A stretch of DNA of 64,000 nt from Thermoplasmatota archaeon (GCA_035526765.1 DATLBS010000030.1:191153-255152), one strand, 5' to 3'. Positions 35,608-46,575 are shown, numbered from the stretch's first letter. A program made the numbers and translations. The notes: a model not told the origin generated them from the sequence alone.

Positions 35608-37356
35608 TCAGCAAGCCGAGGTGGGTGTCGCGTTCGGCCAGATGTAGCCGCCGGAGAGGTCCGTCGCCCCGCTGCTGCCGTGGGCACGGAAGTCCACCTT
35701 CTGGCCGTTCAGCACATGGATGCTCTTGGACCACCCGTACGATTGCTTCGCCAGGGGGATCCAGGAGCCGCTGCAGTTGACGCGCGCGTCCACTCCGGCG
35801 ATGGTCTCGGTGCCCGAGACGCTCGCCTGCACCCAGTACTCGTTGCCCTTCACGCCGCTGAAGGTGGCGTCGAAGCCGGTGGGCGGGGGCGGCGGGGGCG
35901 GCGGGGAGCCGCTGGGGACCCAGCTGAACATCGTCAGGTGACCGTAGCGCATGTCGATGTCGAAGGTCGAGGCGATGACCTCCCGCTTGCCGTCACCTGT
36001 GGCGTCCCCCACGATGAGGCGGTACCCGGCCTCGTCGAACGAGGGCGTGTCGCCCATGTCCGTCTTCTGCCATGCCGAGGCGACCTTGCGGACCTGGTAG
36101 ACATGGTGGTCGGCCAGCAGGACGTAGAGTTCCTGGGTGCCGTCGTTGTCCCCGTCGGCCAGGAACAAGTCGTACCCGTAGGTCGGCAGGGACATGACGA
36201 CGCTGGACACCCAGGCGCCATTGATCCTCTTGATGACGACGAGGTCGTAGTCGCTGAGCAAGGCGATCTCGCCGGAGCCTTCGTTGTCCACGTTGCCGGC
36301 CACGACGGCATCCACCGTGCCGGCCCAGACCTCTGTGGCGACCCAGGCGGAACCCGTGTAGTCCACCATGTACACGAACTGGCCTGGCTTCCCGTAGGAG
36401 GCGACGACCAGCTCGTTCTGGCCGTCCGCGTCCGCGTCCCCGCCCCAGATCTCGCCGGGGCTGATGTTGTACGAAGTGTCGGCGTGGAAGCGTGCGAGGG
36501 GCCCCAGGTTCCAGACTCCGTTCGCGAACCACAGCTTGCTGGCGGTCGTATCGACTCCGTCGCTGCCGGTCACGTACAGCTCGCGGGTGCCCGTGCGGTC
36601 GATGTCGCCCAGCATGAAGGGGCCGCTCACGCGGGCGCCCGTCGCGATGACCTTGTCCACCCAGGCGCCGTTGACGCGGGTGAACTGGTGCATCTCCATC
36701 TGGTTGGTCGCCACGTTGTACCCGTTGGCGTACACATCCGGCTTGCCGTCGCGGTCCCCATCGCCCACCGCGATGTTGCTGAATGGCATCGAGGAGGAGA
36801 TGTGCTCGACCTGGGCGTTCGTGAGGCCCACGGTCCAGAACCTGAACAGGCCTTCGCGGCCGACACCGTAGAGCTCGGCCTTGCCGTCGCGGTCCGCGTC
36901 GCCCGTGCCCATGTCATAGATGCCCTCCACGACCGTCGCGAAGGTGCCACCGCTCTGCCAGACGCCCGATGAGGGCGGCGGAGGTGGTGGCGATCCGCCG
37001 CACGACTCGACGCCTTGCGGGTGGCTGAACCAGCAGCTCGAGACCTGCACACCATCCGCCCACGTGGCCCGGAACTTGACGGGGTTGCCGGACTCGATGT
37101 GGAACGAGGCGCTCCACGAGCCGTAGCTGGTCTTCTTCATGGCGACCCAGGGGCCGCCGTAATCCATGGCGTCCACACGTGCCACCGAGGCGGCGCTGGA
37201 GCCGGACAGGACGACCTCCACCCAGTACTCGTTGCCGCCGGGCTTGTGGTCGAAGACGATGGTCTTGCCCCCTTCCGCCTGGACATGGTTGGCCTGCACG
37301 GGGGCCAGCACGAGGACGAAACTGGCCACCACGAGGACGGCAAGGAGGCTCTTCAT
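35608..37356 (-). CDS. Secreted FG-GAP-repeat (7-bladed propeller) protein flanked by two expansin-D2/CBM63-like modules
   Basis: Signal peptide. Seven GD[AG]D[RN]DG…ELY repeats. N- and C-terminal roughly 95-aa GNEYWV…SW…FRA… modules. Poly-Pro linkers (P6, P8). Confidence 0.75.
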   Translation of the reverse strand: MKSLLAVLVVASFVLVLAPVQANHVQAEGGKTIVFDHKPGGNEYWVEVVLSGSSAASVARVDAMDYGGPWVAMKKTSYGSWSASFHIESGNPVKFRATWADGVQVSSCWFSHPQGVESCGGSPPPPPPSSGVWQSGGTFATVVEGIYDMGTGDADRDGKAELYGVGREGLFRFWTVGLTNAQVEHISSSMPFSNIAVGDGDRDGKPDVYANGYNVATNQMEMHQFTRVNGAWVDKVIATGARVSGPFMLGDIDRTGTRELYVTGSDGVDTTASKLWFANGVWNLGPLARFHADTSYNISPGEIWGGDADADGQNELVVASYGKPGQFVYMVDYTGSAWVATEVWAGTVDAVVAGNVDNEGSGEIALLSDYDLVVIKRINGAWVSSVVMSLPTYGYDLFLADGDNDGTQELYVLLADHHVYQVRKVASAWQKTDMGDTPSFDEAGYRLIVGDATGDGKREVIASTFDIDMRYGHLTMFSWVPSGSPPPPPPPPTGFDATFSGVKGNEYWVQASVSGTETIAGVDARVNCSGSWIPLAKQSYGWSKSIHVLNGQKVDFRAHGSSGATDLSGGYIWPNATPTSAC

Positions 37357-38720: not shown

Positions 38721-39326
38721 ATGGACGCGCGTCTTGTGTGGGTGCGCCGGCTCGGCGTCGTCTCCGTGGCCATGACGTTCATCCTCATGGTGCTGGGCGC
38801 GTGGGTGAAGGCCAACGGGGCGGGGCTCTCCTGCCCCGACTGGCCGGCCTGCTACGGCTCCTACTTCCCCCCGTTCCCCAGCCTCGAGAACGGCGGCACC
38901 TACCATGGCACCCCCGTCGTCTACACGCAGGCGCAGATCCTCTACGAGTGGACCCACCGTGCCGTCGTCGGCCTCATCATCGTCCCGGTCCTTGCCCTTG
39001 CCATCCTCGCGGCCCGCGACCGCCGCTTCACCAAGCCGCTGCGCACCCTTCCTGTCCTTGCCGTCGGCATCTACGTGCTGCAGGCCCTCCTGGGCGCCGT
39101 CACCGTGGTCACCGGGAACCCGCCCTGGGCCACGACGCTCCACCTTGCCACCGCCGTGCTGTGGTTCTTCACCCTGACCCTCGCCGCCTGCCACGCCTTC
39201 CTCAAGCCCTTGCGGCCCGCCGCCATGGTGCGCACGACCCGGCCCGACCCCGAGCCCCAGACGCGCCGCGTGCAGTTCACGTACCCCGAGCCCACCCTCG
39301 ACGCGGACGAGGCCCGGGATGGCTGA
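38721..39326 (+). CDS. ctaA: Heme A synthase, short archaeal type (CtaA/COX15)
   Basis: GLSCPDWPACYG conserved Cys loop after TM1, 4 TM helices, 201 aa. Overlaps ctaB by 8 nt. Confidence 0.75.
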   Translation: MDARLVWVRRLGVVSVAMTFILMVLGAWVKANGAGLSCPDWPACYGSYFPPFPSLENGGTYHGTPVVYTQAQILYEWTHRAVVGLIIVPVLALAILAARDRRFTKPLRTLPVLAVGIYVLQALLGAVTVVTGNPPWATTLHLATAVLWFFTLTLAACHAFLKPLRPAAMVRTTRPDPEPQTRRVQFTYPEPTLDADEARDG

Positions 39327-40290
39327 GGCCGGTACGCTGGTCCCCCCCGTGGAGGTCCAGCAAGGAGTCTCCCTCCAGGCCCCCGCCAGCGGCAGGCGCG
39401 CCTTCGGCGCCGTTGCCAAGGACTACTACGACATCTCGAAGCCCCGCATCCTGTACCTCCTTCTCATCGTGGCATGGAGCGCGATGGCCGTCGCAAGCCG
39501 CGGCTTGCCCCCATGGCGGCCGTTCCTGGCGGTCACCCTTGCCGGCGCCTTCAGCGTCGCAAGCTCCGGCGCCTTCAACCACGTCCTCGAGCGCGGCCGC
39601 GACGCCCGCATGGCCCGCACCGCCACCCGCCCCATCGCCTCCGGCCGCCTCTCCCCCACGGCCGGCCTCGTCTACGGCTTCGTCACCGCGGCCCTCGCCT
39701 ACGCAAGCCTCGCCGTGGCCGGCCTGCAGGTCGCCGCCCTGCTGACGCTCGGCGCCATCGCGTACTACGTGCTGGTCTACACGGTCGTCCTCAAGCCCTC
39801 CACGCCGCAGAACATCGTCATCGGCGGCCTGGCCGGCTCGTTCCCCGCCCTCATCGGCTGGAGTGCAGCCACCGGCGGCCTCGCGTGGCCTGCCAGCCTC
39901 CCCGCGTGGGCCCTCGCGCTGCTGGTGTTCCTGTGGACCCCCGCCCACTTCTGGGCACTGGCCCTGCTGTACAAGGAGGACTACGGCGCCGCCGACTACC
40001 CGATGATGCCCAACGTGCGCGGCGAGGCCAGCACGCGCCGGCAGGTGGTCGCCTACTCCGCCCTCACCGTCGCGTGCTCGACGAGCCTCGTCTTCTCCGG
40101 CAGCGCGGGGTGGGTGTACCTCATGGTCGCTGCCCTCCTCGGCGCCTTGCTGCTGATGCGGTCCGTCCGCATGATGGCCGAGCCGTCGCCGAAGGCATAC
40201 CGCGGCTTCTTCCTCTTCACGATCCAGTACCTCGGCGTCCTGCTGCTGGCCCTCATCGTGGACCAGGCGGCCCGCTTCCCGGTCGCCTAG
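39319..40290 (+). CDS. ctaB: Protoheme IX farnesyltransferase (heme O synthase, UbiA family)
   Basis: UbiA motifs …NHVLERGRDARMARTATRPIASGR… and …WTPAHFWALAL…DY…. 323 aa. Confidence 0.9.
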   Translation: MAEAGTLVPPVEVQQGVSLQAPASGRRAFGAVAKDYYDISKPRILYLLLIVAWSAMAVASRGLPPWRPFLAVTLAGAFSVASSGAFNHVLERGRDARMARTATRPIASGRLSPTAGLVYGFVTAALAYASLAVAGLQVAALLTLGAIAYYVLVYTVVLKPSTPQNIVIGGLAGSFPALIGWSAATGGLAWPASLPAWALALLVFLWTPAHFWALALLYKEDYGAADYPMMPNVRGEASTRRQVVAYSALTVACSTSLVFSGSAGWVYLMVAALLGALLLMRSVRMMAEPSPKAYRGFFLFTIQYLGVLLLALIVDQAARFPVA

Positions 40291-40343: not shown

Positions 40344-40922
40344 GTGGCTCCCAGCAAGAAGACCCCCGCACGCCCGCCACGCAAAGGGGCAGCCAAGCGC
40401 GCATCGCCCGCCGCGAAGGCGGCAGCACGCCGCACGGCCCCGCGCAAGGCTGCCTCGCGCCGCGCCCCGGCCCCCCGTCCCGCCATCGGGTCGGGGACTT
40501 CTGCCAAGGGGCAGGAGGTCCGTCTGGTCGTGGCGCGCAGCCTCGTCGCGCAGGGCCGCATCCAGCTTGCCGTGGAGGCGCCTCCCCGCATCCGGCTCCC
40601 CTTCGGCGCGCTTCTGCTGGTCCGGCACGCGTACGCCCTGCAGGAGGCCTCCCCGGACCGCGAGTCCTACACCTTCACGCTGCACGCCGGCATCGAGGGG
40701 CACGAGAAGGAGAGGCTGGTGGAGCGCATCAGCGACCGCATGGGCGTCGACGACGACCTGGAGGGCTTCATCCAGCACCGGTTCCGCCCACGGGCCCCTG
40801 GCACCTACCACCTCGACTTCGACGTGGAGGCCGAGTACGTCGTGGGCCCCTGGGGGTCCCGCAAGGTCCAGCAACAGGACCGCCGCGTCGGCGCGGGGCG
40901 CGTCACGGTCGTCGTGGGATGA
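40344..40922 (+). CDS. Hypothetical protein with a histone-H1-like Lys/Ala/Pro-rich N-terminal tail and a roughly 130-aa C-terminal domain
   Basis: GTG start. Tail APSKKTPARPPRKGAAKRASPAAKAAARRTAPRKAASRRAPAPRP, then a globular domain of normal composition. Confidence 0.45.
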   Translation: MAPSKKTPARPPRKGAAKRASPAAKAAARRTAPRKAASRRAPAPRPAIGSGTSAKGQEVRLVVARSLVAQGRIQLAVEAPPRIRLPFGALLLVRHAYALQEASPDRESYTFTLHAGIEGHEKERLVERISDRMGVDDDLEGFIQHRFRPRAPGTYHLDFDVEAEYVVGPWGSRKVQQQDRRVGAGRVTVVVG

Positions 40923-42189
40923 GGCGCGGCAGCCTCGCCTCGCGCCCCACGAACTGCGCCTCGTAGCCCGTTGCGATGCTGGCGATCTCGCCCAGCACCC
41001 GGTAGACGTGCGCCGAGCAGGGGTCGAGCACGACCTCGCCCGCCGACGCCGCGCCCTGCTCGGGGAACGCCAGGGGCTCGAACCGGCTTCCCGGCGAGTT
41101 GAGGTTGTCCGCGTCGCCCTTGTCCGCGTGGGCGCGGTAGAAGCCCCCCACCGTGCGGCTGCACACCATGTAGATGACGGGCTCCGCCACGATCCCGGCG
41201 CCACCGCGGATGTCGGTGGGCACGCCTTCCTGCACGATGACGGACGTCGTCTTCACGCGGCCCTTGCCGCGGTCCATCTGCTCCCGGCCGCGCGAGTTGA
41301 GCCCCTCGATGAGGTCGGCACCGGAACGGGCGGTCGTGATGGCCATGCCATAGGTGCCCGCGTCCGCCTTCACGAACACGGAGGGGGCGCGGCGGATGCC
41401 GTGGGCGTCGTACTTGGCCTGCACCCGGCCGATGACGGTGTCCACGGCGGCGGCCAGGACGTCCAGGTTCCCCTTCCCCTTGAAGTCGAGGCCGTCCACG
41501 CGCTCGAAGTCGGCGCTGATGAGCCACGGATCGAAGCCGACCTTGGCGCCCAGCTGTGCCGCCATCTGGGCGACGACGGCGAAGTGCTCCGACTTGCGGC
41601 GGCGGTGCCACCCCATGGCGGGCGGCGGCGTCACGGAAGCTCCCAGTCCCTGCAGCTCCGGCGGGATGCCCTCGGAGAGGTCGTTGTTCAGGACGACGAG
41701 GTCCGCGGGCCTGCCATCTGCCCACAGGCGGTCGCCCTCGCGGCGGATGCGGTGCAGGCGCACGCGCCCGGCGGGGCTGGGCATCTCGGCGCCGTCCATG
41801 ACCTCGGGGCTGAGGGTCCCGAGCGTGACGCCGTAGCCCGCCTCCTGCAGGATGTCCCTGAGGACGGCAAGGTGCGCGAAGTATCCCTGGTTGCGGGTGT
41901 GGCTCTCGGCGACGACGAGGACATGGCGGGCCCCTGGGTCCATGCGGCCAAGGTACCCGCGGGCGACGTCGGCGGCGACGTGGCGGCTGCGCGGCGCGAG
42001 GTTGTTGAAGCCGGCGGGGAAGGCGTTGGCGTCCACGACGGCGGCCTTGTTGGCGTTGCGGCGGATGTCGACGCTCGTGTAGATGGGGCAGCGCACGTGG
42101 TCGCGGTGGAAGGCCAGGAAGCTCTCGACGTGGTCGGCGCGCCGCACCAGCACCTGGTCCAGCTCGTTGAGGTCGTCGCACTCCTGCAT
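40903..42189 (-). CDS. ATP-grasp-type carboxylate-amine ligase, possibly a glutamate-cysteine ligase of the rare A. ferrooxidans GshA type, or GshB-like
   Basis: 428 aa. …SVFVKADAGTYGMAIT… resembles the GshB ATP-grasp motif (ILKPLDGMGGASIF). N-terminal CPIYTSVDIRRNANKAAVVDANAFPAGFNNL motif. The ATG overlaps the asnB stop (TGATG). Confidence 0.5.
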   Translation of the reverse strand: MQECDDLNELDQVLVRRADHVESFLAFHRDHVRCPIYTSVDIRRNANKAAVVDANAFPAGFNNLAPRSRHVAADVARGYLGRMDPGARHVLVVAESHTRNQGYFAHLAVLRDILQEAGYGVTLGTLSPEVMDGAEMPSPAGRVRLHRIRREGDRLWADGRPADLVVLNNDLSEGIPPELQGLGASVTPPPAMGWHRRRKSEHFAVVAQMAAQLGAKVGFDPWLISADFERVDGLDFKGKGNLDVLAAAVDTVIGRVQAKYDAHGIRRAPSVFVKADAGTYGMAITTARSGADLIEGLNSRGREQMDRGKGRVKTTSVIVQEGVPTDIRGGAGIVAEPVIYMVCSRTVGGFYRAHADKGDADNLNSPGSRFEPLAFPEQGAASAGEVVLDPCSAHVYRVLGEIASIATGYEAQFVGREARLPRLIPRRP

Positions 42190-43832
42190 CACGCGAGTGC
42201 CTCCAGGGAGATCGACTCCGGCCTCGCGCCGTGCACGAAGAGCTCCTGCCACAGCCCGAACAGGAGCCGGTCCGCGTCGCTGGCCAGGGCGCCGGCCGGG
42301 TGGTGCAGGCCGCCCGTGGGCCGCAGCCGGGCGGCCTGTGACTCGAACGCCTGCATGACGCGGGGCCCCGTCGCGCGGCCGGCGGGCACCTTCTTCCGCC
42401 AGGCAAGCTCCTTGGGGAGGGCCGGCTCGACGGCGCGCCGCAGCACCCATTTCTCGATGCCTTCGCGGACCTTCAGGTCCCAGGGCGTGGCGTCGCTGAG
42501 GGCCTGCTGCGGCCGGCTGAGGAAGGGGACGCGGACCTCGAGGCCGTGCGCCATGCTGTTGCGGTCGACGAGGCGGAGCTGGAAGTTGGCCAGCTGCGCG
42601 CCCTGGTCCCACTTGGCCAGCTCCGCGGCGGTGGCGTGCTCGCGCAGGATCGTGTCCGGCAGGGTGGTGTCGGCGGGGTGCGCGACGCGCAGGCGGCGCA
42701 TGCGCTCGGCGGCCAGGGCGTGGGGGTCGCGGTAGCGCCCGTAGCCGCCCCACAGCTCGTCGGCGCCCTGCCCGCACAGGCCCACGGTGACGTGGCGCCG
42801 CATCATGCGGAAGAGCGGGTAGAAGAAGTACTCCGTGTAGTTCACGTTCTCGTTGTGCCACGCGTGCCGGGGAAGGTCCCGCAGGAGGTCCTCGAGGCTG
42901 AACGTGGCCTCGTGGTGGTCGGTGCCCAGGTGGTCGGCCAGCCTGCGCGCGGCCTTGGCGTCCTCGACCTCGTCGGACTCCGCGATGGTGAACGTGGAGA
43001 TGGGGCGGTCGGACATGCCCTGGTGGAGGGCCGCGACGGCCGCGGAGTCCAGTCCGCCTGACAGGATCACGCCGAGGGGGACCTCCGACATCAGCTGCTC
43101 GCGCACGGATCCGGCGAGCCGGTCGCGCAGCGCCTTGACGGCCTCCTCGGGGGGAAGGGGCTGCTCGGGGGCCAGGAGGACGTAGGGCCGCGGCTGCACG
43201 TGCCTTGCCCCGGGCTTGACCAAGGCCCAGGTGCTGGGCGGCAGCTGGTTGACTCCCTGGAAGAGGGTGCGGGTCCCGGTGAGGAACTCGAACACCGCCT
43301 GCTCCCGGAACGCGTCGAGGTCGGCGCGGGGCGGGCGCGCGTCATGGGCGAAGAGGGCCTTGGCCTCGCTGGCGAACACGAGGTCGTCGCCGGCGAAGGC
43401 GTAGTGGAGGGGCTTGATGCCCCAGGGGTCGCGCGCCAGGAACAGCTCACGCTTCTGGCCGTCCCACAGCGCGAAGGCGAACATGCCCTCCAGGCGGGTG
43501 AGCACCTCCGCTCCCCAGAGGCGGTAGCCCTCCAGGATCACCTCGGTGTCGCTGCGGGTGCGGAACGTGGCCCCCGCGGCCTCGAGTTCGGCCCGGAGGG
43601 CGAGGTGGTTGTAGACCTCGCCGTTGTACGTGATGGTGAACCGGCCGGAGGCGTCGGCCATGGGCTGCTGGCCGGTGGCGACGTCGATGATGGCGAGGCG
43701 GCGGTGGCCGAGCGTCACCTGCGCGTCCGACCAGGTGCCGGACCCATCGGGACCGCGGTGCGCGATGCGGTCGCACATCCGCGTCACCAGGGCGCGGTCG
43801 TCACGCCCCAGCAGGCCCGCGATGCCGCACAA
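42189..43832 (-). CDS. asnB: Asparagine synthetase (glutamine-hydrolysing) family amidotransferase
   Basis: Class-II GATase N-terminus (M)CGIAGLLGRDD… then the PP-loop SGGLDS. TTG start at 43832, placed so that the catalytic Cys is residue 2. Confidence 0.85.
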   Translation of the reverse strand: MCGIAGLLGRDDRALVTRMCDRIAHRGPDGSGTWSDAQVTLGHRRLAIIDVATGQQPMADASGRFTITYNGEVYNHLALRAELEAAGATFRTRSDTEVILEGYRLWGAEVLTRLEGMFAFALWDGQKRELFLARDPWGIKPLHYAFAGDDLVFASEAKALFAHDARPPRADLDAFREQAVFEFLTGTRTLFQGVNQLPPSTWALVKPGARHVQPRPYVLLAPEQPLPPEEAVKALRDRLAGSVREQLMSEVPLGVILSGGLDSAAVAALHQGMSDRPISTFTIAESDEVEDAKAARRLADHLGTDHHEATFSLEDLLRDLPRHAWHNENVNYTEYFFYPLFRMMRRHVTVGLCGQGADELWGGYGRYRDPHALAAERMRRLRVAHPADTTLPDTILREHATAAELAKWDQGAQLANFQLRLVDRNSMAHGLEVRVPFLSRPQQALSDATPWDLKVREGIEKWVLRRAVEPALPKELAWRKKVPAGRATGPRVMQAFESQAARLRPTGGLHHPAGALASDADRLLFGLWQELFVHGARPESISLEALA

Positions 43833-43842
43833 GTTCAGGCCC

Positions 43843-44082
43843 TCAAGGCGCGGCCCCGTACTGCTGCTCGATGTGGCGGCAGATCTCGGCGAGGTCGTTG
43901 GAGAGGAAGGGGCCGTCCTGCAGGACCGGGACGGACTGGCTGCCGAACTTGGCGCGGACGAGGGACTTGTCGCCCACGGGCAGGGTGACGGCCTCGAAGG
44001 GGACCTGGTACTGCCGGAGCAGGCGGCGCACGCGGCCGCACTCATGGCATTCCGCGAACTGGTACAGGGTCGGGGTGGCCAT
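43843..44082 (-). CDS. Glutaredoxin-like protein (CxxC)
   Basis: MATPTLYQFAECHECGRVRRLL…VPVLQDG has the Grx fold pattern. 79 aa. Sits 10 nt upstream of asnB. Confidence 0.75.
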   Translation of the reverse strand: MATPTLYQFAECHECGRVRRLLRQYQVPFEAVTLPVGDKSLVRAKFGSQSVPVLQDGPFLSNDLAEICRHIEQQYGAAP

Positions 44083-44144
44083 GGGGCCGCGAGGAAAGCG
44101 CGCGTTGATAAGGTGCCGGGTGGGGGGCTCCGACGCTCCTTGGT

Positions 44145-44902: not shown

Positions 44903-45700
44903 TCATGGCAGGTCGGCGAGATCTTCCAGCTGCGTGTCGCGCAGCGTGGGCCGGAACTCGCGCGCCGGCACGAGGTCGTCGGGGTCCAGCTCGACGACGA
45001 GGCGTCCTGCCTCCATCGGCTCGAGGCGGCCGAGGCGGTCGCCGCGCGGACCGTACGCCTGCGCGCCGCCCCAGAAGACGATGCCGTCCTGGGCGCCGAC
45101 GAGGTTCGTGTACGCGCTGAAGCACGCGTTCTCGATGGCGCGCGCGGGGAGCAGGGCCTCGAAGAAGCGCTGGCTCGTCGTGGGGCTTGCGCTGATGTTC
45201 AGCAGGAGGTCGGCGCCCGCGAGGGCCTGGCGGCGGTTGGCCTCCGGGAAGAACAGGTCGTAGCAGATGTTGATGCCGAGGTCGCCCAGCTCGGTCTGCC
45301 ACACGGGCGATTCCCTGCCGGGCTTGAAGAACAGGGATTCCTGGAAGGTGGTGAAGGTGGCCAGGGAACGCTTGTCGTAGGCCGTCGTCGTGCCGTCGGG
45401 GGTGATGAGGAACGCGGAATTGTGCGTGATGCCGGCGCGCGGGGTGCGCGGACCTCCCACCACGACGTGCGCCTTGGCCTTCCCTGCTGCCTTCCGGATG
45501 GGCTCCAGCCTCGGGTCGTCGAGGCGGAGTGCCAGGCGTTGCGCGTCGTCGCCGATCGCGTAGCCGGTGAGGAACATCTCGGGGAACACGACAAGGTCGG
45601 CATTCCGCGCAAGCACGGCCTTGGCGACGGTCGCCACGTTGGCCTCCACGGCCCCGAGCCTGGGGGCAGCCGCGTGCAGGGCCAGCCGGATGCGGTCCAC
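44903..45700 (-). CDS. Carbon-nitrogen hydrolase (nitrilase superfamily)
   Basis: …LVVFPEMFLTGY… catalytic Glu, …KRSLATF… Lys, …NICYDLFFPE… Cys. GTG start. Divergent from nadE. Confidence 0.85.
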   Translation of the reverse strand: MDRIRLALHAAAPRLGAVEANVATVAKAVLARNADLVVFPEMFLTGYAIGDDAQRLALRLDDPRLEPIRKAAGKAKAHVVVGGPRTPRAGITHNSAFLITPDGTTTAYDKRSLATFTTFQESLFFKPGRESPVWQTELGDLGINICYDLFFPEANRRQALAGADLLLNISASPTTSQRFFEALLPARAIENACFSAYTNLVGAQDGIVFWGGAQAYGPRGDRLGRLEPMEAGRLVVELDPDDLVPAREFRPTLRDTQLEDLADLP

Positions 45701-45714
45701 AAGGTCGCCTTCAA

Positions 45715-46575
45715 GTGGCTCGCCTACTTGGGGGTGTCGTGGCGGACGCGCATGGGGCCCTGCCCGTGGACGGCCCGGCGCGCTGGGAGCAGTCGATCGT
45801 CGCGTTCTTGCAGCGGCACGTCGAGTCCGCGCACGCCAAGGGGCTCGTGGTCGGGGTGTCCGGCGGCCTGGATTCCGCGGTGGTGGCGGCCCTGGCGGTG
45901 CGCGCCCTGGGCAAGGGGAAGGTCCTGGCCGTCATGCTTCCTGCGCCCGACTCGAACAAGCAGGACAAGCAGCACGCCCTTCTGGGCTGCAAGACCCTTG
46001 GCCTCAAGCCGCTGGAGCATGGCGTCGGCCCCATCGTCGAGGGCCTCGAGAAGACCCTGGGCTACACGCCGGAGGCGCGCGTCCGGGGCAACGCCAAGGC
46101 GCGGGCGCGCATGCTGATCCTGTACGCCGAGGCGCAGAAGCGCGAGTACCTCGTCTGCGGCACCGGCAACAAGTCGGAGATCCTCACGGGCTACTTCACG
46201 AAGTACGGCGACGGGGGCGTCGACGTCAACCCCATCGGCGACCTGTACAAGACGCAGGTGCGGCAGTTGGCGCGCCACCTCGGCGTGCCGAAGCCCATCA
46301 TCGGGAAACCGCCCAGCGCGGGCCTGTACGCCGGGCAGACCGACGAAGGGGACATGGGCCTCACGTACGAGGAGCTGGACGCGGTGCTGCGCGGCATGGA
46401 GCTGAACCTGTCCCTCGACGTCATCGCCCGCCGCACGGGTCTGCCGCGCAAGAAGGTGGAGAAGGTGGAGGGGATGGTGCGGCGCACGGAGCACAAGCGC
46501 CGGATGCCCCTCATCCCGAAGATCGGGGTGCGCACGGTGGGCATCGACTGGCGCCGGTCGGTGCACTGGGACTGA
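45715..46575 (+). CDS. nadE: NH3-dependent NAD+ synthetase
   Basis: …VVGVSGGLDSAVVAAL… PP-loop, …YGDGG…IGDLYKTQV… NadE motifs. GTG start. Confidence 0.9.
   Translation: MARLLGGVVADAHGALPVDGPARWEQSIVAFLQRHVESAHAKGLVVGVSGGLDSAVVAALAVRALGKGKVLAVMLPAPDSNKQDKQHALLGCKTLGLKPLEHGVGPIVEGLEKTLGYTPEARVRGNAKARARMLILYAEAQKREYLVCGTGNKSEILTGYFTKYGDGGVDVNPIGDLYKTQVRQLARHLGVPKPIIGKPPSAGLYAGQTDEGDMGLTYEELDAVLRGMELNLSLDVIARRTGLPRKKVEKVEGMVRRTEHKRRMPLIPKIGVRTVGIDWRRSVHWD

Follow-up and report, generated by a model that had tools for sequence, protein, structure and literature searches.

The window, by which we mean the whole 64-kb stretch of Thermoplasmatota DNA analyzed here, carries three neighboring genes on its minus strand, and their coordinates and junctions were confirmed from the window positions and translations. 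In the direction of transcription, they encode a glutaredoxin-like (GST-N-like) thioredoxin-fold protein of 79 aa (positions 43843–44082, with ATG at 44082 and TGA at 43845–43843), an AsnB-like glutamine amidotransferase of 547 aa (asnB, 42189–43832, with TTG at 43832–43830 and TGA at 42191–42189), and a 428-aa ligase of the ATP-grasp fold (gshA, 40903–42189, with ATG at 42189–42187 and the stop codon at 40905–40903). The junctions are as an earlier note on this DNA had described them: the glutaredoxin-like gene stops 10 nt ahead of the asnB TTG (spacer 43842–43833, with GAGG inside it), and the asnB stop codon overlaps the ligase start codon as TGATG (42187–42191, minus strand). A GGAGG sequence lies 10 nt upstream of the latter ATG (42200–42204), and asnB and gshA are probably translationally coupled through this overlap. 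The asnB TTG is followed directly by TGC (both codons together at 43827–43832, minus strand), so the initiator is followed by Cys, the nucleophile needed by Ntn amidotransferases, which would become N-terminal after removal of the Met. Farther upstream on the same strand, where the earlier note had placed them, are genes for a Dph6-type diphthine–ammonia ligase (44816–44145; PF01902; 193.6 bits for TIGR03679, whose cut-off is 197.3) and a C-N hydrolase (45700–44903), the latter divergent from NadE (45715–46575, plus strand).

The ligase had been read in the earlier note as a GshA of the Acidithiobacillus ferrooxidans type, and the profile searches bore this out: it matched PF08886 over its full length at 400.9 bits (cut-off, 25) and TIGR02049 at 358.3 bits (cut-off, 293.9), and is thus above both curated cut-offs. 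An identity as Ddl or RimK was rejected. The fold is that of the solved family member 3K1T, and the nearest structural neighbors are glutathionylspermidine synthetase, trypanothione synthetase, and GshB. When GshA sequences were compared, 49 positions were at least 95% conserved within each of three sets, comprising 58 high-GC archaeal, 66 marine, and 67 bacterial sequences. The family-invariant residues are present in the window ligase, including E321, E336, R352, and N364 as well as the universally conserved K274, D276, and G278-T-Y-G281 of the ATP-grasp nucleotide-binding strand and loop (FVKADAGTYGMAI, residues 272–284, positions 41338–41376, minus strand). The sole functional evidence for the PF08886/TIGR02049 family comes from the A. 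ferrooxidans ligase gene, which adjoins gshB and complements an E. coli gshA mutant. Judging from this family assignment, the window enzyme would join Glu and Cys with ATP to give gamma-Glu-Cys.

Among the 82 archaeal loci with enough upstream sequence to be informative, asnB lies directly upstream of gshA in 80; about 70 of these belong to Marine Group II (Poseidoniales), at 34–41% identity, and two archaeal loci, L003 and L103, have gshA with no asnB within 9–10 kb. In contrast, asnB was found within 10 kb of gshA in none of the 79 bacterial loci, 59 of which carry gshB (PF02955 and PF02951) immediately downstream of gshA, whereas a tblastn search with a bacterial GshB query detected gshB neither in the window nor in any archaeal locus. 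This switch of partner falls at the deepest branching in the GshA tree. The asnB/gshA junction in Marine Group II is an overlap of 4 nt in 41 of 61 cases and of 1 nt in a further 8 (49/61 together), and the pair is kept from the high-GC clade to Marine Group II while all other neighbors change. The adjacency of asnB and gshA is therefore no chance juxtaposition.

The earlier note had named co-conservation of all three genes as a check of its proposal; the pair held, but the glutaredoxin proved facultative. The gene abuts asnB in five of the nine loci of the non-marine clade, is absent from L002, L081, L161, and L165, and occurs beside asnB-gshA in none of the approximately 70 Marine Group II loci. 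The window protein scored 44.3 bits against GST_N_3 (PF13417) and 25.2 bits against Glutaredoxin (PF00462; cut-off, 22.9), and has the active site C12-H-E-C15 with a downstream S-V-P-V-L containing the V-P (cis-Pro) element. Orthologues directly upstream of asnB have CHEC in L001 and L164 and the canonical CPYC in L163, and another is found in L172. Thus, the glutaredoxin-like protein appears to be a facultative accessory of the asnB-gshA module, with a predicted role as a disulfide reductase. No candidate disulfide reductase or peroxidase was found among 30 further ORFs of the window. This negative result, the lack of the glutaredoxin in every Marine Group II locus, and the two archaeal gshA genes with no asnB nearby weigh against the thiol module proposed below.

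The AsnB-like protein combines a class-II (Ntn) glutaminase domain with a PP-loop adenylating synthetase domain, and matched GATase_7, GATase_6, and Asn_synthase in profile searches. Its N-terminus reads M-C-G-I-A-G, and its orthologues have ATG, GTG, or TTG directly before Cys-Gly-Ile. Both domains, Cys1, and the equivalents of R49, N74-G75-E76, and D98, which serve glutaminase activity and glutamine binding, are shared with asparagine synthetase B (E. coli AsnB, 1CT9, to which they were aligned, and human ASNS, 6GQ3), as are the Asp351 and Glu352 equivalents and the PP-loop, whose SGGLDS (residues 258–263, positions 43044–43061, minus strand) aligns to that of E. coli AsnB. All of these retained residues favor the main alternative to a dedicated enzyme, in which the thiol pathway ends with the gamma-Glu-Cys made by GshA, as it does in the GshB-lacking haloarchaea, and AsnB is an ordinary glutamine-dependent asparagine synthetase that is co-regulated with GshA. 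The same reading draws on the asparagine synthase “equivalog” TIGR01536, which the protein passed at 439 bits (cut-off, 267). However, this pass is no proof of asparagine synthesis, because P0207, an archaeal homologue that is apparently the amidotransferase partner of an Ngg ligase, also passed it (431 bits); furthermore, the protein fell below the cut-off of the AsnB equivalog NF006949 (308 bits versus 499).

The ordinary-synthetase reading also has to accommodate a substitution at the catalytic site. In the motif LCGQGADELWGGY, Gln355 (CAG, 42768–42770, minus strand) occupies the site of Glu348 in E. coli AsnB and Glu364 in human ASNS, and in the alignment to 1CT9, C-G-Q-G-A-D-E stands where asparagine synthetases have S-G-E-G-S-D-E. 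Gln occurs at this position in 77 of 77 GshA-linked AsnB homologues, and the change of Ser346 to Cys is likewise invariant in the GshA-linked clade. Human ASNS is inactive as either E364Q or E364A (PMC6748925), which argues against asparagine synthesis. On the other side, the Glu348-equivalent site varies (E, D, Q, L, or N) across the long-type AsnB superfamily, and Gln is also found in the unlinked Undinarchaeales homologue P0205 and in other unlinked archaeal homologues, which may be genuine asparagine synthetases. When phylogeny was considered (the best 150 representatives of 86,615 homologues), the GshA-linked proteins formed an exclusive clade, in which every member whose context was checked adjoins gshA, whereas orthologues of a housekeeping AsnB would be expected in gshA-free genomes too. 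The stop/start overlap, kept across about 35–40% identity while other neighbors were all replaced, also speaks against mere co-regulation. In favor of it, housekeeping amidating enzymes (NadE, the C-N hydrolase, and Dph6) are encoded in a row with the pair in the non-marine clade, and gamma-Glu-Cys alone is established as a thiol of archaea, which lack GshB (PMC7278568; PMC7554672). On balance, we propose that the AsnB-like protein is a dedicated amidating enzyme and regard an ordinary asparagine synthetase at this locus as somewhat less likely, although it is the strongest competitor, in line with the suspicion of the earlier note that it might not be a housekeeping asparagine synthetase.

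The nearest relatives outside the GshA-linked clade occur in peptide or dipeptide contexts: the gene for P0207 directly follows that of a bona fide Ngg (756 bits against TIGR03103), and further relatives belong to radical-SAM/SPASM/ThiS or M16-peptidase clusters. The Ngg/AsnO pathway, in which an ATP-grasp ligase and an AsnB-like enzyme yield a dipeptide amide (N-acetylglutaminylglutamine amide, NAGGN; PMC8070244), follows the same logic of a ligase with an adjacent AsnB-like amidotransferase. In contrast to that pathway, the ligase here is of the GshA type rather than the GNAT-RimK fusion Ngg, the amidotransferase is below the cut-off for AsnO (TIGR03104, 297 bits versus 570) and neighbors gshA rather than ngg, and the pathway would be expected to yield a thiol instead of an osmolyte. 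The proteobacterial gshA-gshB operon (AFE_3064/AFE_3063 in A. ferrooxidans; structure 3K1T) has a ligase of the same family, fold, and universal residues, likewise in an operon with a second enzyme acting on a carboxylate. There, however, GshB is encoded downstream, whereas the archaeal GshA, separated from the bacterial enzymes by the deepest branching of the tree, has its AsnB-like partner upstream, and the predicted second step adds NH2 instead of Gly.

Taken together, the family assignment, the AsnB clade, and the conservation of the pair support the earlier suggestion of a thiol ligase working with an amidating enzyme. It is a real, if tentative, possibility that asnB and gshA encode the two enzymes of a low-molecular-weight thiol pathway, with the amidotransferase holding the place of the bacterial glutathione synthetase. 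With the same reserve, we suggest that GshA supplies gamma-Glu-Cys to the AsnB-like enzyme, which amidates this dipeptide where bacteria would add glycine, so that an amidated gamma-Glu-Cys thiol would be the chemical product. In this scheme, the ATP-grasp GshA would ligate the gamma-carboxyl of Glu to Cys; the AsnB-like enzyme would hydrolyze Gln at its N-terminal Cys; its PP-loop domain would adenylate a free carboxylate of gamma-Glu-Cys, most likely that of Cys, to which GshB would add Gly; and channeled ammonia would be captured to give gamma-glutamyl-cysteine amide together with Glu, AMP, and PPi. Because the Glu from the glutaminase half can feed the first step, Gln and Cys would, on balance, be turned into the product. 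Where present, the CxxC glutaredoxin-like protein would use the thiol for disulfide exchange, and in the non-marine clade the module would share a transcript with Dph6 or follow it closely.

Two known thiol systems resemble the proposed one in part. Glutathione amide, a natural thiol of the Chromatiaceae and Ectothiorhodospiraceae, is a gamma-Glu-Cys peptide with an amidated C-terminal carboxylate (PMC8877833), but it is a bacterial tripeptide that needs GshB. The literature examined on glutathione amide names no amidating enzyme, and the Chromatiales loci L045 and L056 have no asnB in the vicinity of gshA. Haloarchaea have a gamma-Glu-Cys-based thiol without glutathione synthetase, made by the GshA HVO_1668; however, this type of GshA belongs to IPR006334/IPR006336 rather than to the ATP-grasp family PF08886 (PMC7278568), and has no linked amidotransferase. 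Since the asnB-gshA pair recurs in the abundant ocean archaea of Marine Group II, it may make an amidated protective thiol that has not been described. More cautiously still, Marine Group II and related Thermoplasmatota might use gamma-glutamyl-cysteine amide as such a thiol, by way of GshA and an AsnB-derived amidotransferase replacing glutathione synthetase; if so, an archaeal group that ranks among the most abundant in the surface ocean would have a redox buffer of its own.

A product without Cys appears improbable, and less likely than an ordinary asparagine synthetase. It might be a gamma-glutamyl-X amide or dipeptide amide, serving as an osmolyte or cofactor precursor, or the pair might form a gamma-glutamyl carrier relay, in which Glu is charged with a small amine by the ligase and the Ntn domain of AsnB then frees this amine into the tunnel toward an adenylated acceptor. 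The model for the relay is the hydroxylamine transfer of 7YLZ, a “hydroxyamidotransferase” that matches the AsnB-like protein better than any other PDB entry (E = 2.6e−70) and whose donor we take to be gamma-glutamylhydroxamate. ATP-grasp ligases readily swap their amine substrate, with the nearest structural neighbors GspS, TryS, and YgiC all using different amines, and archaeal GshA departs systematically from bacterial GshA at four positions, of which two flank the invariant D53 and N55. Moreover, the Marine Group II operons run on into genes for an uncharacterized membrane protein and a ferredoxin, not into genes for thiol enzymes. Nevertheless, the 49 conserved residues, including the whole ATP-grasp core, are common to the gshB-linked bacterial enzymes, the Marine Group II ligase is itself above the TIGR02049 cut-off (302 bits versus 293.9), and a CxxC glutaredoxin abuts the pair in five loci, all of which speak against a product without Cys.

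Finally, the worry in the earlier note that AsnB might belong to the neighborhood of Dph6 and the C-N hydrolase is answered by Marine Group II, in which the pair stands without these genes. Dph6 is syntenic in L001, L002, L163, L164, and L172 but is not adjacent to asnB-gshA in Marine Group II, and is outside the conserved core of the module. The C-N hydrolase and NadE correspond to the N-terminal and C-terminal halves, respectively, of the PRK13981 NAD+ synthase model, which makes the hydrolase the probable glutaminase partner of the NAD synthetase.

The three genes lie on the minus strand at positions 44082–40903, and reading of the ORFs reproduced exactly the layout described in the earlier note. 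The glutaredoxin-like ORF (79 aa, with a C-H-E-C motif) runs from an ATG at 44082 to a TGA at 43845–43843 and is followed, after a 10-nt spacer, by the asnB-like ORF (43832–42189, 547 aa), whose sole possible start is the TTG at 43832 and whose next codon encodes Cys. In class-II amidotransferases, the N-terminal Cys is the nucleophile. The ligase gene, gshA (42189–40903, 428 aa), starts with an ATG at 42189 that overlaps the asnB TGA as TGATG and has a GGAGG 10 nt upstream. The G+C content of the window is about 70%, and its other ORFs fit an archaeon, including those for A-type ATP synthase subunit D, an aIF5B-like GTPase, EMG1/Nep1, Trm5/Tyw2, and PurP. Thirty further ORFs and the tRNA and Rfam scans of the window contained no disulfide reductase, peroxiredoxin, GGT, or cysteine synthase. 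A lone AT-rich heptamer, TTATCAA (44105–44111), within DNA of 72% G+C, is centered ~26 nt upstream of the glutaredoxin-like ATG and could be an archaeal TATA box for a leaderless transcript of the three genes. At two related loci from other genomes (L164 and L172), the spacer between a Dph6 gene and the glutaredoxin-like gene is only ~24 nt, implying read-through from Dph6 there.

The ligase had been proposed to resemble the GshA of A. ferrooxidans, and profile searches bore this out: it matched PF08886 in Pfam at 400.9 bits and TIGR02049 (“gshA_ferroox”) in NCBIfam at 358.3 bits, above the cut-off of 293.9. The public record of an identical protein (P0001) annotates it as a glutamate–cysteine ligase of Candidatus Thermoplasmatota archaeon. 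Both its family membership and its ATP-grasp fold are established. When 58 members from the high-GC clade (the non-marine archaeal relatives of the window locus), 66 marine members, and 67 bacterial members were aligned, 49 positions were at least 95% conserved within each of the three groups, and only four positions separated the archaeal from the bacterial sequences (R29/W, V51/P, A54/T, and E401/R). According to a preprint citing Powles et al. 1996 (bioRxiv 10.1101/2021.06.29.450459), gshA of A. ferrooxidans (AFE_3064) complements an E. coli gshA mutant and adjoins gshB (AFE_3063). Because its residues are conserved with those of this functionally anchored family, we infer that the archaeal ligase produces γ-Glu-Cys.

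The genomic partner of gshA differed between the two domains. A gshA scan with one genome per species yielded 80 loci, 77 of them bacterial, and tblastn detected no AsnB homologue within 10 kb in these 77. Neighbor clustering showed that 59 of 79 bacterial gshA loci carry, directly downstream and on the same strand, a gene for a 317-aa protein (median gap, 90 nt), whose Pfam domains (PF02955 and PF02951) identify it as glutathione synthetase (GshB). No GshB homologue was found in any archaeal locus or anywhere in the 64-kb window. In the archaeal loci L001, L002, L081, L082, L161–L165, and L172, asnB stands directly upstream of gshA, and the same order occurs in approximately 70 marine metagenome loci whose GshA proteins are only 34–41% identical to that of the window. 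Exact look-ups showed that these marine proteins are labeled Candidatus Poseidoniales or Poseidoniaceae (Marine Group II), EHR76444.1 and EHR76445.1 from a 2.06-Mb assembly among them. The pair thus recurs from the high-GC clade to Marine Group II, in 80 of the 82 archaeal loci whose upstream sequence was long enough, but the marine loci comprise one order and a few other lineages, so independent events are fewer than the locus counts suggest. Of 61 Marine Group II loci, 41 have an asnB stop that overlaps the gshA start by 4 nt, and 8 have a 1-nt overlap; the remaining junctions have gaps of 2–9 nt, or, in a single case, 35 nt. The core, which is conserved and translationally coupled, is asnB-gshA. 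In a neighbor-joining tree of GshA (midpoint root, no bootstrap), the AsnB-linked archaeal and GshB-linked bacterial sequences fell on opposite sides. In bacterial gshA-gshB, GshB turns the Cys carboxylate of γ-Glu-Cys into an amide bond with Gly, whereas archaeal GshA has a switched partner, being coupled to an enzyme whose chemistry turns a carboxylate into a primary amide.

All neighbors other than the pair differ between Marine Group II and the high-GC clade. In Marine Group II, methylmalonyl-CoA genes and MeaB lie upstream, and a membrane protein and a ferredoxin lie downstream; the conserved membrane-protein neighbors had no Pfam match. In L085 (1496–2830), L089, L131, L134, and ~45 other loci of this group, three same-strand genes follow gshA with gaps of 0–9 nt, encoding a ~232-aa polytopic membrane protein, a 110-aa 2x[4Fe-4S] ferredoxin, and a ~100-aa membrane protein. 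Since a gap of ~200–250 nt precedes asnB, these genes may share the asnB-gshA operon. The two exceptions to the pairing, L003 (8832–10130) and L103 (9977–11224), have an archaeal GshA homologue with no asnB within 9–10 kb, flanked in L003 by an Lhr helicase on one side and an HdrD-like CCG protein on the other, and lying in L103 beside a Lon-like protease and genes that, judged from their sequences, are apparently phosphonate-related; the explanation is either a separated pair or a pathway that ends at γ-Glu-Cys in these lineages. The taxonomic labels of two records seem mistaken: despite full synteny with the window locus, L001 bears the title “uncultured Halobacteriales archaeon,” and a Poseidoniales GshA cluster at 90% identity includes one member labeled “Deltaproteobacteria bacterium.”

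The family membership of the AsnB-like protein is likewise clear: it has GATase_6/7 and Asn_synthase domains in Pfam and passes TIGR01536 at 439 bits. It falls below the AsnB equivalog NF006949 (308 vs 499 bits) and the NAGGN amidotransferase model TIGR03104 (297 vs 570 bits). A HMMER scan over 1.84 billion representatives retrieved 86,615 AsnB homologues, and in a neighbor-joining tree of the best 150 of these together with the locus proteins, again built without bootstrap, all GshA-linked proteins formed one exclusive clade (13 of 157 sequences); the clade representatives with context looked up, P0204 (L165) and P0203 (L172), precede gshA. On near branches outside the clade were P0205 from Undinarchaeales, which is not linked to gshA, P0218, which adjoins M16 peptidases, P0206, which adjoins a radical-SAM gene, and P0211, which lies within a radical-SAM/SPASM/ThiS cluster; the P0207 gene follows, at a distance of 6 nt, that of a GNAT-ATP-grasp protein scoring above the cut-off of the Ngg equivalog TIGR03103 (756 vs 569 bits). 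These contexts indicate that the nearest relatives of the GshA-linked clade are pathway-embedded enzymes. P0207 apparently serves as the amidotransferase in an NAGGN-type pathway leading to a dipeptide amide; in this pathway, Ngg makes N-acetylglutaminylglutamine and AsnO then amidates it (PMC8070244). Since P0207 also passes TIGR01536 (431 bits), passing this model does not establish Asn synthesis.

L169 (842–4276), on an archaeal-looking contig with FtsZ downstream, encodes a bona fide N-acetylglutaminylglutamine synthetase (TIGR03103, 756 bits) and, 6 nt later, an AsnB-like protein below the bacterial AsnO model (307 vs 570 bits); it may represent a NAGGN pathway of archaea whose amidotransferase is non-orthologous. 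The closest AsnB-like proteins not linked to GshA occur in L171 (129–8225), L168 (2037–4516), and L170 (3208–7736). One lies within a radical-SAM/SPASM/ThiS cluster, one next to a lone radical-SAM gene, and one upstream of a pair of M16 peptidases; all three settings look like uncharacterized peptide-modification clusters.

In the active site, the window sequence L-C-G-Q-G-A-D-E aligns with L-S-G-E348-G-S-D-E of E. coli AsnB (1CT9), placing Gln355 at the position of the catalytic Glu. All 77 GshA-linked proteins compared (77/77) have Gln at this position and Cys two residues earlier. In human ASNS, the corresponding Glu-364 is described as a residue that known asparagine synthetases share, neither the E364A nor the E364Q variant is active, and Asp-367 binds the substrate amino group (PMC6748925); the equivalent of Asp-367 is kept in the window protein. 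The E348 position varies across the long-type superfamily (E, D, Q, L, or N), and the Glu-to-Gln substitution was rejected as a signature unique to GshA linkage, being present also in P0205, which is not linked to gshA, and in radical-SAM-cluster homologues. The alignment to 1CT9 shows an intact PP-loop and a full set of glutaminase residues (equivalents of R49, N74-G75-E76, and D98), so a glutamine-type donor and adenylation chemistry are expected.

We rate the locus as a candidate thiol biosynthetic operon with its second enzyme swapped. In the most economical model, which we favor tentatively, GshA would join Glu and Cys into γ-Glu-Cys, and the AsnB-like enzyme would then convert this presumptive substrate, probably at the Cys carboxylate, into γ-Glu-Cys-NH2; the Glu freed from Gln could re-enter the first step. 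It is somewhat less probable that γ-Glu-Cys is itself the end thiol and that the neighboring gene encodes an ordinary Asn synthetase; the TIGR01536 match and the “amidation” neighborhood suit this reading, but it fits poorly with the obligate linkage, the clade exclusivity, and Gln355. A non-Cys product or a γ-glutamyl-carrier relay, suggested by the best PDB match of the AsnB-like protein (the hydroxyamidotransferase 7YLZ), is improbable; the ligase is strongly conserved relative to bacterial GshA, which argues against it.

Public records annotate the two genes automatically as glutamate–cysteine ligase and asparagine synthase. A 2020 review of archaeal thiols counted only the IPR006334 and IPR006336 GshA families, not PF08886, and reported no archaeal GshB (PMC7278568); another 2020 paper named only haloarchaea and Nitrososphaerales as γ-Glu-Cys users (PMC7554672). 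The searchable literature yielded no paper tying Marine Group II or Thermoplasmatota to a PF08886 ligase or the asnB-gshA pair, and none on γ-glutamylcysteine amide as a natural product. The conserved two-gene module makes it testable which thiol serves as redox buffer in Thermoplasmatota, a group that includes the globally abundant Marine Group II archaea. If the product is amidated γ-Glu-Cys, a new natural thiol would be added, the first enzyme would be assigned to the C-terminal amidation of a glutathione-type peptide, and the “asparagine synthase” annotations in thousands of marine archaeal MAGs would be mis-assigned, affecting inferences on the amino-acid autotrophy of marine archaea.

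Of the trio grouped in the earlier note, the asnB-gshA pair was co-conserved, and the glutaredoxin was not a constant member. The glutaredoxin-like protein matched GST_N_3 at 44.3 bits and Glutaredoxin at 25.2 bits (cut-off, 22.9). Its orthologues abut asnB in L001 and L164 (CHEC), L163 (canonical CPYC), and L172; none was found in L002, L081, L161, L165, or any Marine Group II locus, and the 98-aa (L161) and 80-aa (L165) ORFs upstream of asnB are not glutaredoxins. The glutaredoxin was rejected as an obligatory third member; the gene is a lineage-restricted accessory outside the core, and its presence supports a thiol context for the module, in which it would have a redox role.

A Dph6-type PP-loop enzyme and a C-N hydrolase are encoded upstream on the same strand, the latter divergently from NadE. 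The alternative that AsnB belongs primarily to this neighborhood was discarded, since synteny of these genes is confined to the high-GC clade and the hydrolase pairs better with NadE: the two match the N- and C-terminal halves, respectively, of the fused NAD+ synthase model PRK13981, so the hydrolase most likely serves NadE. The stand-alone hydrolase, divergently paired with a single-domain NadE in the window (44903–46575) and in L001, L081, L163, L164, and L172, looks like a split glutamine-dependent NAD synthetase kept across the clade.

Convergent to gshA are genes for heme O synthase (UbiA/CtaB; 39319–40290, plus strand) and, in the region upstream of it, CtaA, as in every high-GC-clade locus reaching that far (including L161, L163, L164, and L172), and cytochrome b/Rieske genes lie near the Marine Group II loci; the module therefore travels with aerobic-respiration genes. 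HxlR-family regulators recur close to the module, at distances of a few kb, in L165 (813–5576), L163 (3180–3518), and L172 (1312–1659). Other genes near the module in L165 encode a 277-aa GST-like protein, a PLP-dependent PALP enzyme, and an SNF transporter. Elsewhere in the window (35608–37356, minus strand), a secreted 582-aa protein carries FG-GAP repeats between poly-Pro linkers, with similar short domains (GNEYWV...SG...ARVD) at its N- and C-terminal ends.
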